From Candidatus Poribacteria bacterium (GTDB lineage Bacteria > Poribacteria > WGA-4E > WGA-3G), in contig CBDBFT010000001.1 in NCBI GenBank assembly GCA_965205065.1, positions 2,156,836 to 2,220,835 on the forward strand: 64,000 nt of DNA. Reading direction: 5' to 3'. Shown here in pieces: positions 10,489 to 18,228 of this stretch. The position numbers were made by a program, and so were the translations under genes. Under the pieces are notes generated by a model. That model searched no databases and was not told the origin of the DNA. It saw only the letters and a program-made list of their open reading frames with translations. The number at the start of each line of letters is the position of its first letter. The stretch's first letter is position 1.

Positions 10489-11511
10489 TTGGAAAACAGT
10501 AAGTTGTTATCATTCTACACGCCTAAAGAAGACTTCCTATTATCACTTAGAGGAAAGGGTAAGCATAAGTATGTACGTTACAACGGCCTCCCGCTGCGAT
10601 ATGCAGGTGGGAAGAGTCTCGGAGTAGGACATATAATTGAACACATTCCAGAAGGAATTGACAAACTTTCCTCTCCATTCATTGGCGGTGGATCAGTTGA
10701 AATCGCATGTGCAAAAGAACTTGGTATGCAGGTCAGAGCCTATGATGTTTTTGATATTCTCGTCAACTATTGGCAGGTGCAACTCTCCACAAGTCAACAA
10801 CTTGCAGAAAAACTTCTGGAATGGGAACCGACAAAAGAAAAGTATGCTGAAATAAAGACTACACTCAAGGGACATTGGACAGGTGAATCTCCTATTTCTG
10901 ATCCATTAGAGTTAGCTGCACACTACTGGTTTAATCATAACCTTTCATACGGACCCGGTTTTCTCGGATGGATGTCAAAGATTTACGAATCAACCAGCAG
11001 GTATATTTCAGCAGTAGAAAAAGTAAGAAAGTTTTCTTGTCCATCATTAGAAGTGCAACCCGGAAGTTTTGAACAAACCATTCCTCAACACAAAGAAGAA
11101 TTCCTTTATTGCGATCCTCCCTATTACCTTGATGATGGTAAAATGTTCAAAGGAATCTATCCACAGCGAAATTTTCCTGTTCATCATAAGGGTTTTAAAC
11201 ATGAAACCCTTCGTGACCTACTGTATGAACATGTAGGAGGGTTCGTGCTTTCATATAATGATTGTGATACAATCAGAAATTGGTATACTGATTTTGAAAT
11301 AATTGAGGTAAAATGGCAGTACACATTAGGACAAGGTGAAACACGGATTGGGAAAAATCGCATAGAAAAGGGTATGGGACATGTTAAAAAGTCTCACGAA
11401 TTGTTAATTATTGGAAAGAGAAAACGTTTATTATTGAACAGTTTTGGAAATAACGTAGAGGTAGAAAATCAGATTTCTGTATATGGCAGTGCAATACCTG
11501 ATTTAGATTAG
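10489..11511 (+). CDS. Dam-family (D12 class, alpha-group) N6-adenine DNA methyltransferase.
   Basis: N-terminal RYAGGK motif (compare Dam WAGGK), SAM-binding PFIGGGSVE (FxGxG) and catalytic DPPY (CDPPYYLDD). It lies 40 bp upstream of cas10 on the same strand. Confidence 0.85.
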   Translation: MENSKLLSFYTPKEDFLLSLRGKGKHKYVRYNGLPLRYAGGKSLGVGHIIEHIPEGIDKLSSPFIGGGSVEIACAKELGMQVRAYDVFDILVNYWQVQLSTSQQLAEKLLEWEPTKEKYAEIKTTLKGHWTGESPISDPLELAAHYWFNHNLSYGPGFLGWMSKIYESTSRYISAVEKVRKFSCPSLEVQPGSFEQTIPQHKEEFLYCDPPYYLDDGKMFKGIYPQRNFPVHHKGFKHETLRDLLYEHVGGFVLSYNDCDTIRNWYTDFEIIEVKWQYTLGQGETRIGKNRIEKGMGHVKKSHELLIIGKRKRLLLNSFGNNVEVENQISVYGSAIPDLD

Positions 11512-11550
11512 ATACATGAAAAAACATACGATACCAAAGGACAAACCACA

Positions 11551-13866
11551 TTGAAACAACAACTTTTAACACTCGCAGCACTCCTACACGACATCGGCAA
11601 ATTTCGGCAACGCGCCACCGGACGCTACACAAAACACCAAGAACATAGCTACGAATTCGTCAACAACGATTTCAATACTTTCTTCGATCCTTGTGGAGAT
11701 ACCTTCAAAAACGCTATCCTAAACCACCATCATAAACCAGAACAACTTCAGCATCTCATAGAAAAACAGGTAGTATTAGCAGACCGTCTCTCCGCATCCG
11801 AACGCGAAGATGAGGAACGAGAAACGGAGGACTTCGTTGCATCTCCGCTCGCTTCTATTATGTCACGCCTTAAATGTGCTGAGAAAGAACATCGCTACAA
11901 ACTGACAAAACTCAATTTTGAACGGGACACGGTCATCCCACAAGAAACCGTTGAGGTCAATGAAAATGATTATGCAGGTTTGTGGGAGAAGTTTAAAGAG
12001 GAATTCAGCACAGCAACAGAAGGTAAAACCTATGAACCAGCACATTATCAAACCATCGTAGCACTCCTACACAAATACACAGTTCGTATACCGTCCGCAA
12101 CGCCGTGGGAAAAAGACGGAAAGAAAACGATCCCAGATATTTCGCTCTACGACCATCTCCGCACAACCGCAGCCATTGCAGCCTGTATCGGACACGAACT
12201 AAATGACGAAAACGAAGTTGACGCAATACTTAATGATACTGAAAAATCAGATCGGCACATAGCCTCGCTTATCAAAGGCGACATTTCGGGTATCCAGGAT
12301 TTTCTCTATCACATCCAATCCGATGGCGCATCCAACCAACTGCGTGGTCGTTCATTCTACCTGCAACTCCTCACGGAAGCAATCGCGCACTATGTCCTAA
12401 AGCAGTTTGAACTTCCTATCACAAACCTAATTCTCGCAAGTGGCGGACACTTCTTTATCCTTGCGCCTTACACCGAATCCAAAGAGAAGTTAAGCACAAT
12501 TCGACAAGAAATATCCCAAAAGTTGTGGGAACTCCATAGAGGCGATATTTCCTGCATGTTAGCGGGTATCTCCATAAAAGCACGCGATTTTAAAACTGAG
12601 AATTTCACGGAAAAATGGGATGCCGTTTCAAAAAAAGTCAATGAAAGAAAACAGCAGAAATGGTCAGAATTAGAAGCAGAACAGATGTTTGATAACCTCT
12701 TTGAGCCAAGCGATGACAGAACTATTAATGAACAGGAAGATGACGAAGAGAAGAAAAGAGACCCTTGGCAGTTTGAAAAACTTGGAAGGAAATTGCGGGA
12801 TGCAAAATATCTTATCACTTACGATATAGCAAAATCAGATATCCTTCCACAACCCAAATGGCACGATGCAATCAATGCCTTCGGTTTAGATGTTGAAGTC
12901 CTGGAAGATACCCGTGCCAAACCTGAACTGCAGGGAGTAAATACTGTTGTCTATAGACTCGGGGATACACGTTTTCTCGAAAATTCAGAAGATTTTCAAT
13001 CGGAAAACAACTTTGTTAGCTACGATTTCCGAATATTTAAACCCGTAATCGCATATCGGCACGATACAGATGAACCCGATAAAATCGCTGATTACAATCA
13101 CCTCGCAAACGCATCAGAAGGTGTTAACTGGTTCGGTGCACTCCGCATGGACGTTGATAACCTCGGCACCGTCTTCAAAGATAAACTTGAGAACGCAACC
13201 ATCTCACGGCATGCAACCTTAAGCAGAGAAATGCGCCTATTTTTTGAAGGATATGTCCCGAAACTATGTAAAGCATATAACGAGAACAAAAATAAACAGA
13301 TTCTTGAACTCATCTACGCTGGTGGTGATGACCTATTCCTTGTCGGTGGGTGGAGTGCGTTGCCTGATATAGCAGAACATATCCGCTCCGAATTTAAACA
13401 CTTTGTCACAGGTGCCCACGTAACGCTTTCAGGTGGTATCGCCATTGAACACATGAAGTATCCGCTTTATCAGTTTGCAGAACGGAGTGGCAATGCAGAA
13501 GACGCTGCAAAGGGTATTGATGAAAACAAGGATGCGATCTCATTTTTACAACTACCGATGAAATGGGAAGAGTTTGCTAAAGTGCGCGAATGGCACGAAA
13601 AGTTTACGAACGTACTAACAGGTCAAGACCAACTACCGCGCGACATACTCACCCGTCTCAGCCAGATATATGAAGATAAAGAGCGGTGGGCATGGCGTTC
13701 ACTCTACTACTTCCATCGACTACAAGAGAGATACAAATATGACGAACAGAAAGATTTTCTACGTGAACTAAAACAGAAACTTAACCACGAAGATTCTTCT
13801 CAATTTAGAGAGGAACTCATCCATGTCATTACCAGATGGACCGCACTACGTATCAGAAACAGGTAG
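11551..13866 (+). CDS. cas10: Cas10 (Csm1-like) large subunit with an N-terminal HD nuclease domain and a GGDD cyclase/Palm motif.
   Basis: LHDIGKF HD motif at residues about 11-17. IYAGGDDLFLVGGW GGDD motif in the C-terminal half. 771 aa. First gene of a csm2-csm5 series. Confidence 0.9.
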   Translation: MKQQLLTLAALLHDIGKFRQRATGRYTKHQEHSYEFVNNDFNTFFDPCGDTFKNAILNHHHKPEQLQHLIEKQVVLADRLSASEREDEERETEDFVASPLASIMSRLKCAEKEHRYKLTKLNFERDTVIPQETVEVNENDYAGLWEKFKEEFSTATEGKTYEPAHYQTIVALLHKYTVRIPSATPWEKDGKKTIPDISLYDHLRTTAAIAACIGHELNDENEVDAILNDTEKSDRHIASLIKGDISGIQDFLYHIQSDGASNQLRGRSFYLQLLTEAIAHYVLKQFELPITNLILASGGHFFILAPYTESKEKLSTIRQEISQKLWELHRGDISCMLAGISIKARDFKTENFTEKWDAVSKKVNERKQQKWSELEAEQMFDNLFEPSDDRTINEQEDDEEKKRDPWQFEKLGRKLRDAKYLITYDIAKSDILPQPKWHDAINAFGLDVEVLEDTRAKPELQGVNTVVYRLGDTRFLENSEDFQSENNFVSYDFRIFKPVIAYRHDTDEPDKIADYNHLANASEGVNWFGALRMDVDNLGTVFKDKLENATISRHATLSREMRLFFEGYVPKLCKAYNENKNKQILELIYAGGDDLFLVGGWSALPDIAEHIRSEFKHFVTGAHVTLSGGIAIEHMKYPLYQFAERSGNAEDAAKGIDENKDAISFLQLPMKWEEFAKVREWHEKFTNVLTGQDQLPRDILTRLSQIYEDKERWAWRSLYYFHRLQERYKYDEQKDFLRELKQKLNHEDSSQFREELIHVITRWTALRIRNR

Positions 13867-17877: not shown

Positions 17878-17881
17878 AGAA

Positions 17882-18228
17882 CTTTTAATCGCACCAGTTT
17901 GGAATAGAAACTGACAATACTATGTAAAATGTGGTATAATTAAGTACTTTTAATCGCACCAGTTTGGAATAGAAACCATTATAATTGGAGACGGAATATT
18001 TTGCAGTCTAAACTTTTAATCGCACCAGTTTGGAATAGAAACGGGTGATTAATGACTCCCCGTAGCTCAGTGAATAGAGCATGAGGTTTCTACCCTCAGT
18101 GTCACAGGTTTGAATCCTGTCGGGGAGTCCACTTTTAATCGCACCAGTTTGGAATAGAAACACTCCCAAGTTGGACATGACTTATCAATAATGAAAAGCT
18201 TTTAATCGCGCCCGTTGTGTAAAGTTTT
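17882..18228 (+). CRISPR. Second, leaderless mini-array: four perfect copies and one degenerate terminal copy of the same 30-bp repeat. One inter-repeat unit is a tRNA-like gene.
   Basis: Perfect repeats at 17882-17911, 17947-17976, 18013-18042 and 18132-18161. A degenerate copy at 18199-18228 (CTTTTAATCGCGCCCGTTGTG...) marks the trailer end. The first repeat starts 4 nt after the csm5 stop. Confidence 0.9.
18056..18131 (+). tRNA. tRNA-Arg(UCU)-like gene with genome-encoded CCA, sitting between two CRISPR repeats.
   Basis: Manual fold: acceptor CTCCCCG/CGGGGAG, D-stem GCTC/GAGC, anticodon stem TGAGG/CCTCA with loop TTTCTAC (anticodon TCT), T-stem ACAGG/CCTGT, discriminator T, then CCA. Non-canonical D-loop (AGTGAATA, no GG pair) and T-loop (TTTGAAT). 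A19-U56 could covary. It may be a divergent or pseudo tRNA. Confidence 0.7.

Follow-up and report, generated by a model that had tools for sequence, protein, structure and literature searches.

A gene for a DNA adenine methyltransferase (MTase) directly upstream of a type III CRISPR effector operon raises the question of whether the enzyme takes part in RNA-guided immunity or merely stands beside it. The case comes from a 64-kb stretch of the genome of a sponge symbiont, a Candidatus Poribacteria bacterium (contig CBDBFT010000001.1, positions 2,156,836 to 2,220,835; hereafter the window), where the genes for the MTase, cas10, csm2, csm3, csm4 and csm5 succeed one another on one strand and lead into a five-repeat array. 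This order had been reported in a first-pass annotation of the sequence, and our map of open reading frames (ORFs) and hidden Markov model (HMM) searches agree with it, all coordinates included. Our answer is that the locus is very probably a rearranged piece of a Candidatus Poribacteria defence island, made up of an intact type III-A module, a decayed restriction-modification (R-M) cassette and a truncated CRISPR array. The truly unusual features here are a tRNA gene within the array and a fusion of a cold-shock domain (CSD) to Csm2, both of them lineage-restricted. The genes of the operon, both arrays, the tRNA gene and the promoter-like sites described below all lie on the plus strand.

Homologous loci (L numbers) were collected in a Cas10-alignment scan with one genome per species. 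The scan gave 78 csm loci, 38 from Poribacteria species representatives and 40 from outside the Poribacteria, and the best 38 were almost all from Candidatus Poribacteria metagenome-assembled genomes. Up to 10 kb upstream of cas10 was covered; four Poribacteria loci include less than about 1.6 kb of upstream DNA and are only weakly informative. Six closer metagenomic relatives (L085, L089, L104, L087, L105 and L106) were added, with Cas10 83-87% identical, compared with 48-85% among the Poribacteria species representatives.

The gene at the head of the operon encodes a type II, D12-class N6-adenine DNA MTase (core at 10489..11423) with the motifs SPFIGGGS (FxGxG) and CDPPYY (DPPY). The full ORF (10489-11511) matches Pfam MethyltransfD12 (PF02086, E=4e-34, 119 bits against a cut-off of 22), the family that the first-pass annotation had named for an HMM check, and the PADLOC Type II model MTase_II PDLC03281 (E=5e-118, 297 of 309 positions). 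The protein falls below the cut-offs for Dam (TIGR00571, 58.5 bits against 114.85; PRK10904, 31.5 against 441). Thus, of its earlier description as a Dam-family enzyme, the D12 class stands and the Dam equivalog does not, and GATC specificity cannot be assumed.

Comparison with relatives points to the origin of this gene. L089 and L104 carry a two-gene cassette in which the MTase gene (M, 313 aa) overlaps a 260-aa gene (R), with cas10 directly after it. The ORF of the window consists of M residues 1-311, 98.7% identical to the M of L089, joined in frame to the last ~27 codons of the deleted R gene (11424..11511, LLLNSFGNNVEVENQISVYGSAIPDLD); 22 of these 27 residues are identical. Compared with L089 and L104, the window lacks about 0.69 kb, with GAAA-type microhomology at the junction, and no intact restriction endonuclease remains beside the MTase in the window. 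L001 and L085 share a different R deletion, in which the first ~22 R codons are kept and joined just upstream of cas10; a further internal deletion in L085 leaves a 125-aa MTase fragment, with the M promoter kept and the csm genes intact. Read together, these alignments suggest a decay series from intact M-R (L089, L104) through M only (the window and L001, by two independent events) to neither gene (L085).

The cassette also occurs away from CRISPR loci, as M-R pairs with overlapping or abutting stop and start codons in L091 and L093, and lone M genes stand among housekeeping genes in L079, L081 and L082. MTase homologues of 70-80% identity are widespread in Poribacteria, with non-CRISPR settings that include a position between ribonucleotide reductase and a PSD-domain protein and another inside a suf cluster. 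The 260-aa family has 53 members, several sharing contigs with MTase homologues. Searches of Pfam, NCBIfam, PADLOC and PDB sequences returned no match for it, and its annotation came from fold comparison alone. The AlphaFold model, built on a 30-sequence alignment, reached a mean predicted local distance difference test (pLDDT) score of 90.4 and a predicted template modelling (pTM) score of 0.87, and the conserved residues E24, K41, D43 and S53-V54-K55 fit a PD-(D/E)XK site. The modelled fold identifies the 260-aa gene as a predicted PD-(D/E)XK type II endonuclease, the putative partner of the MTase.

MTase DNA is 95-98% identical among the window, L001, L085 and L089, the broken copy included, and cas10 only 87-90%. 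That the MTase DNA is the more alike of the two, even in the broken L085 copy, fits a recent shared arrival of the cassette. Several observations weigh against this account. The endonuclease assignment derives from a predicted fold whose sequence identity to solved enzymes is 14-15%; in two lineages (the window and L001) the MTase has outlasted R at full length and with its motifs intact; its higher DNA identity could reflect selection for a role at this position; and the three tandem genes that follow the MTase in L093 are unusual for a simple R-M pair. On the third point, the broken L085 copy is equally similar, which argues for recent shared origin instead of positional selection. Concerning L093 itself, the segment 4252-7587 carries the MTase and then genes of 264, 260 and 252 aa, one of which belongs to the putative endonuclease family. 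Two further members of that family, P0258 and P0272, lie on contigs both 12,075 nt long, a hint of paralogous expansion that is likewise unusual for type II R-M.

We therefore favour what the first-pass annotation had offered as its fallback, that the MTase is a hitchhiker, the M half of an M-R cassette found in varied stages of decay. A two-gene type II R-M cassette would have landed directly upstream of cas10 in a narrow sub-clade, and in the window the ~0.69-kb deletion would have eliminated the endonuclease, leaving an orphan MTase with the endonuclease tail joined to it. What the evidence shows is the ordinary alternative, in which defence systems cluster and R-M cassettes decay endonuclease-first.

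The operon downstream is a bona fide type III-A (Csm) effector operon, and its five csm genes form an intact module, in line with the type III-A-like assignment made earlier. The genes are separated by gaps of 8-208 nt. Cas10/Csm1 (771 aa, 11551..13866) matches TIGR02578 (E=2e-177, 592 bits against a cut-off of 170) and carries both an HD nuclease motif (LLHDIGK) and a GGDD cyclase motif (YAGGDDLF), with Pfam matches to HD, Csm1_B and Cas10 palm2. It is followed by csm2 (14075..14632; Pfam and NCBIfam TIGR01870), which encodes a 185-aa CSD-Csm2 (Cas11) fusion, by csm3 for the Cas7 backbone RNase subunit (14645..15478; TIGR02582, E=5e-65), by csm4 (Cas5; 15487..16518; TIGR01903, E=1e-69) and by csm5 (16714..17877; TIGR01899, E=2e-43). 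The matches to TIGR01870, TIGR02582, TIGR01903 and TIGR01899 all exceed the curated NCBIfam cut-offs. The earlier call of csm2 holds for its presence; the longer ORF from 13925 is not the real gene start, because it is inflated by reading through an intergenic tandem repeat, and the true csm2 is 14075-14632.

That repeat consists of 4.9 copies of a 39-nt hairpin-type unit in the cas10-csm2 gap (13857..14045), and its hairpin unit is shared with the 69-nt tandem repeats (3.1 copies) in the csm4-csm5 gap (16492..16705). The unit GTAGGAGGGAACTCCGATTCCCGA fills both intra-operon gaps in tandem, with an AGGAGG motif within every copy. As a separate observation, Csm5 is 58-78% identical to its relatives and Csm3 about 90%, which indicates mosaic recombination within the operon.

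The CSD occupies residues 1-66 of the Csm2 fusion (KGFGFI, VHF) and has intact RNP1 and RNP2 motifs, and Csm2 occupies residues 85-185. The fusion recurs in about 17 Poribacteria csm loci and is missing from L085 and L104. Among 1.84 billion representative proteins, matches across both CSD and Csm2 were limited to two full-length clusters and one fragment, and our search of the literature on CSD-Csm2 fusions found nothing specific. A CSD fused to a type III subunit has precedent, yet the CSD-Csm2 architecture is rare. It could add single-stranded RNA capture to the small subunit.

The operon depends on components encoded elsewhere. The usual Poribacteria layout runs cas6, cas8b, cas7, cas5, cas3, cas10, csm2-5, a CARF gene (Cas_APE2256), cas4, cas1, cas2 and array; a second layout has cas1, cas2 and array before cas10 and onward, and both use the repeat family of the window. 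In the 64-kb window, no cas6, cas1, cas2, cas4, type I-B or CARF genes were found, either by tblastn with Poribacteria homologues or in Pfam scans covering 30 of the larger ORFs between 20.5 and 60.2 kb. For a CARF effector in particular, there was no tblastn match in the window to the Cas_APE2256 CARF protein of the relatives or to Csx1, and no CARF domain in the Pfam scans. A Csm6/Csx1/CARF neighbour is an accessory feature of type III-A, and its absence here does not exclude membership. The first-pass annotation had placed cas6, cas1 and cas2 outside the window, to be supplied in trans; consistent with this, cas1-cas2 lie upstream of the equivalent large array in the relatives L085, L003, L011 and L035.

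In the window this large array spans 21..9440, with 141 identical 30-nt repeats (CTTTTAATCGCACCAGTTTGGAATAGAAAC) and spacers of 34-42 nt, and extends past the left edge. Its repeat is also found in the related Poribacteria loci L003, L085, L089 and L104, and the array is likely the main source of CRISPR RNAs (crRNAs) for the Csm complex. Counting both arrays of the window (21-9440 and 17882-18161), all 145 of the 145 full repeats are identical, with no mutated copy. In the proposed working of the system, a Cas6 whose gene lies beyond the window would cut crRNAs from this 141-unit array of the same repeat, and the Csm complex would take them up; Csm3 would cleave target RNA, the HD domain of Cas10 would cleave single-stranded DNA, and the GGDD palm would synthesize cyclic oligoadenylate (cOA).

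The small array downstream of the operon is of a different kind. As reported earlier, it starts 4 nt after the csm5 stop, csm5 ending at 17877 and the first repeat beginning at 17882, and its five repeats comprise four perfect copies, identical to the 141 of the large array, and one degenerate copy. The remnant (17882..18228) is composed of repeat R1 (17882-17911), spacer S1 (17912-17946, 35 nt), R2 (17947-17976), S2 (17977-18012, 36 nt), R3 (18013-18042), a slot of 89 nt holding a tRNA gene (18043-18131), R4 (18132-18161), S4 (18162-18198, 37 nt) and the degenerate R5 (18199-18228). This make-up, in which the first four repeats are perfect and the fifth is degenerate, an 89-nt tRNA unit stands among three spacers of 35-37 nt and a leader is absent, fits a truncated remnant.

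The truncation point can be read by comparison with the start of the CARF gene in relatives. This gene, which follows csm5 in L104, L085, L001 and L003, begins ATGGCAAGACTTTTAATAACG; the repeat begins CTTTTAATCGC; and the window reads TAAAGAACTTTTAATCGC, with the deletion junction AGAACTTTTAAT at 17878..17890. The start of the CARF gene and the 5' end of the repeat have ACTTTTAAT in common. Thus, a deletion running from the start of the CARF gene (AGACTTTTAAT) to a repeat (CTTTTAAT), with the shared ACTTTTAAT as its microhomology, would have taken out the CARF effector gene together with the leader and the proximal array units. The mini-array would then be the distal remainder of the array that normally comes after csm5, the CARF effector gene and a leader, which in relatives has a conserved TTGACA-N17-TATAAT. 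In L085, the array that follows the CARF gene ends in sequence homologous to S4, the degenerate R5 and the trailer. With the CARF gene deleted, the system of the window is left without an adjacent cOA effector, though Cas10 keeps GGDD. Among close relatives the content of this slot differs: in L089 (10137-11708) csm5 is followed by Csx16 (STIV B116-like) and a Csx1/Csm6 CARF-HEPN protein, and L085, L104 and L005 carry the Cas_APE2256 CARF protein there, so the cOA effector slot has been swapped.

The earlier picture of a leaderless private mini-array is accurate in that the leader is absent, by deletion; it overlooked a strong promoter-like site in S1 and the tRNA unit. The site, CTGACA-N18-TG-n-TATAAT (17911..17940), is formed by the last base of R1 and spacer 1 and has 11 of 12 matches plus an extended -10. 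It is the best promoter-like site downstream of the operon and joint best in the 10 kb scanned, and no plus-strand site of its strength was found in the 140 spacers of the large array. The idea that S1 and S2 are leader remnants was rejected, their similarity to Poribacteria leaders being marginal (S1 is equalled or exceeded by 3 of 140 control spacers, and S2 by 11 of 140). An autoregulatory cr-like RNA targeting its own cas promoter was also discarded, with no meaningful spacer match to the operon or elsewhere in the window: searches of the window with S1, S2 and S4 (blastn-short) gave chance-level matches of at most 13 nt, none of them at 10300-11600.

The 89-nt unit lies far beyond the 34-42-nt spacer range and contains a gene for tRNA-Arg(UCU) at 18056..18131, recognized by ARAGORN (anticodon tct) and by Rfam RF00005 (61.4 bits against a gathering threshold of 29, E=1e-11). 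Its cloverleaf is recovered in the minimum free energy (MFE) fold within the repeat context, and its encoded CCA abuts repeat 4. A tRNA-Arg(UCU) gene directly 3' of a CRISPR repeat occurs in the window, L001, L085 and L089. In the window and L001 it lies in the array downstream of csm5 with its CCA touching the next repeat; in L089 and L085 it closes the array that precedes the MTase, with repeats resembling miniature inverted-repeat transposable elements (MITE-like repeats) after it. Compared with 11 other Poribacteria tRNA genes from the loci collected, it is atypical in C1-G72, G18-A19 with U56, U73 and the encoded CCA. It is preceded by a 13-nt flank, GGGTGATTAATGA (18043-18055), which resembles the 5' part of the repeat in degenerate, inverted form and makes with repeat 3 (18013-18042) a 14-bp imperfect hairpin in the MFE fold; the pairing partner is deleted in L001. 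Given the exact join between CCA and repeat, a tRNA make-up unusual for the host and a 5' flank that is a degenerate, inverted piece of the repeat, the tRNA may have originated in an aberrant capture event. Exact matches that would point to a phage origin of the tRNA or the repeat were absent from IMG/VR. The tRNA pattern was likewise unmatched in JGI metagenomes, where nine array-bearing contigs lacked a tRNA, and the searchable literature yielded no precedent for natural tRNAs in CRISPR arrays, only engineered tRNA-crRNA arrays. A second kind of cargo between repeats was seen in relatives, an ORF of ~270 aa with no Pfam domain at the trailer end of the upstream array, with a full CRISPR repeat on one side and a repeat, either partial or full, on the other (L003:7340-8187 and L105:438-1289).

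It could be argued that the mini-array is not debris but a working crRNA and tRNA unit, in which the S1 promoter drives R2-S2-R3-tRNA-R4-S4 and coupled processing yields two guides and tRNA-Arg(UCU). The rank of the S1 site, its extended -10 and the lack of an equal on the plus strand of the 140 large-array spacers speak for this, as do the four perfect repeats, the cloverleaf that folds in context and the frequency of AGA codons. Moreover, the tRNA shows one loop-base difference among the window, L001 and L089, against 6-13% in the non-coding M promoter region, and in L089 at least 1.3 kb of array precedes it, which leaves no space for a separate promoter. Conversely, S4 is also present in L085 and is an old spacer of the trailer end, no target could be detected for S1 or S2, and the likeness of S1 to a leader is marginal. 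The L085 copy of the tRNA has a 1-nt insertion in the D arm, and the tRNA, atypical for the host, may be redundant. We rejected purifying selection on the tRNA as an argument, which is weak since the neighbouring MTase DNA, broken copy included, is almost as conserved (95-98%), so that tRNA conservation may reflect recent common origin only. On balance, a working unit is a serious possibility, although not the outcome that we expect.

A more specific form of this proposal concerns the tRNA alone. AGA makes up 19% of the Arg codons in the genes of the window, and a tRNA-Arg(UCU) species is therefore needed. If the array copy is functional and transcribed only within the pre-crRNA, driven by the leader of the array in L089 and L085 and by the S1 promoter in the window, tRNA and guides would be freed together by Cas6, RNase P and 3' trimming from a natural tRNA-crRNA polycistron, and AGA-decoding capacity would be tied to CRISPR transcription. 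We consider this rather doubtful. Under our preferred account, in which the mini-array is a deletion remnant, what the remnant would retain is two spacers of ordinary length, the promoter-like S1 unit and the tRNA-Arg(UCU) gene in a spacer slot; this tRNA would share a transcript with the crRNAs, and Cas6 together with RNase P and 3' trimming would release it.

A functional partnership between the MTase and the csm genes fares much worse. The first-pass annotation had put the MTase ~40 bp upstream of cas10 and regarded co-transcription as likely. The gap from the MTase stop to the cas10 start measures 39 nt; a promoter-like site, TTGCCA-N18-TATAAT (10402..10431, 11 of 12 matches, joint best in 9400-19400), precedes the MTase; and no plus-strand terminator-like site was found between the MTase and the end of the mini-array. 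Co-transcription is thus plausible, and the site at 10402-10431 probably drives the MTase and the csm operon together, judging from these sequence features. The region around the M promoter is conserved in the window, L001, L085, L089 and L104, including L085 with its broken MTase. In our reconstruction, a conserved MTase promoter would now also read the csm operon, a transcriptional accident and not a functional partnership.

The opposing proposal, which came with the first-pass annotation, takes the adenine MTase as a functional type III-A accessory at the first position of the operon that marks self DNA or tunes HD-nuclease or transcription-coupled targeting. The short gap, the seemingly shared promoter and the uninterrupted passage between the genes agree with it, as do the survival of an intact MTase after endonuclease loss in the window and L001 and the MTase-cas10 adjacency kept in five lineages. 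Its distribution is contrary: among the 78 loci scanned, tblastn found the MTase within the DNA covered, up to 10 kb upstream of cas10, in a single one, L001, so that it is absent from 37 of the 38 Poribacteria species representatives and from all 40 non-Poribacteria loci. Of the closer relatives, L085, L089 and L104 have it, while L087, L105 and L106 (Cas10 83-85% identical), which are equally close by Cas10 identity, do not. The annotation had named homologous loci without the MTase as the finding that would count against a conserved association, and such loci are the rule. Furthermore, the MTase is broken in L085 while the csm genes there are intact, the intact state comprises a predicted cognate type II endonuclease, and the M-R cassette, like lone MTases, is also found at sites remote from CRISPR loci. 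What licenses type III targeting is target RNA together with anti-tag pairing, and no type III step is known to read N6-methyladenine (m6A) in DNA. An accessory role is thus very improbable, and the link between the MTase and the csm genes would be positional and transcriptional, not mechanistic. The annotation had called the MTase-cas10 pairing an undescribed accessory combination, and our search of the literature on MTase-type III links found nothing specific. If the MTase had been recruited as a type III accessory, it would represent a new functional link, joining epigenetic marking with RNA-guided immunity.

The least credible explanation is that the assembly of repeat-rich metagenomic DNA produced chimeras at the csm5/repeat junction, at the tRNA between repeats or at the MTase fusion, since, hard as CRISPR arrays and the many tandem and MITE-like repeats here are to assemble, and despite runs of N in L001 and L085, the repeat-tRNA junction is found in four independent assemblies from different samples and the MTase-cas10 adjacency in five lineages, two lineages have a second contig from a separate sequencing run (L086 for L085, L090 for L089), each junction has sensible microhomology, and the Cas10 sequence of the window is on record on a 5.9-Mb contig.

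The surroundings are rich in repeats and in other candidate defence genes. GGAAG-rich 8-mer/16-mer tandem arrays, intergenic and on either strand, lie at 9689-10284, 20369-20559, 27184-27534 and 40104-40800 and create spurious ORFs. Repeats of the GGAAG type had suggested a cyanobacterial source, an idea abandoned when the homologues turned out to come from Candidatus Poribacteria. Units of 31 nt (AAAGAAGCACAATCAAGGATGAATGTGCTAC) form tandem blocks of 118-268 nt at 9610-10312, 18698-19267 and 40786-40879, on both sides of the csm locus, and MITE-like CTATAAACATATCGTCCCTACGGGAC elements at 19695-20300 are also present in L003, L085 and L089. Farther away, a second DNA MTase (PF01555 N6_N4_Mtase, 50582-51439) lies beside a PDDEXK_2 protein (51479-52279) and near two domain-less ORFs (47878-50031), and the cluster 47878-52279 may be a further R-M or defence cluster. 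At 30003-31066, a Uma2-family putative endonuclease that matches the PADLOC candidate system PDC-S03 comes after a nucleotidyltransferase-like ORF (DUF2204/DUF6036).

Taken as a whole, the locus offers a clean multi-genome case of CRISPR locus remodelling, in which deletions arise at repeats and repeat-like microhomology, a foreign promoter is taken into service, and a cOA effector gene is lost while cas10 retains its cyclase motif. Among its closest counterparts are the composite type I-B and III-A loci of Poribacteria (L005, L004/L087, L023), which have the 30-nt repeat family and csm order of the window; the CSD-Csm2 fusion, too, is shared with Poribacteria loci. Those composite loci carry cas6 and the I-B genes upstream and the CARF gene, cas4, cas1, cas2, leader and array downstream, with no MTase. 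In the window, by contrast, cas6 and the I-B, CARF, cas4, cas1, cas2 and leader elements have been lost or relocated, and an R-M remnant and a tRNA have been gained.

Gene set and order are also those of the solved III-A Csm complexes, and the best PDB matches of the Cas10 of the window are III-A Csm1 chains (9g9a, 7uzw, 6xn3, 6nud, 6ifn). Unlike those systems, the window has a CSD on Csm2, a probable foreign (MTase) promoter and hairpin tandem repeats in two intergenic gaps, and its 64 kb contain neither a csm6/CARF effector nor cas6 nor adaptation genes. A cold-shock domain on a type III effector subunit is likewise known from the CSD-containing Cmr6 of a solved III-B complex (PDB 9arw, 9z7q), the difference being that the fusion partner there is Cmr6 in III-B and here is the small subunit Csm2 in III-A.

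The MTase and its lost partner resemble type II R-M systems with small PD-(D/E)XK enzymes: the predicted fold of the 260-aa protein is like those of R.HinP1I, R.MspI and R.HhaI, and, as in type II R-M, the MTase gene overlaps the ~260-aa endonuclease gene in L089 and L104. The loss of the endonuclease before the MTase is what is seen with the orphan MTases left by type II R-M. In contrast, HinP1I, MspI and HhaI partner C5-cytosine MTases, whereas the partner of the 260-aa protein is an N6-adenine D12 enzyme. Finally, engineered polycistronic tRNA-guide RNA and tRNA-crRNA arrays place a tRNA between repeat-guide units, and RNase P and 3' processing act beside the guides, as would apply here. 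The arrangement in the window differs in being natural, with a single tRNA in a bacterial Cas6-type array; if expressed, the tRNA in the array would be a natural counterpart of the engineered tRNA-guide arrays.

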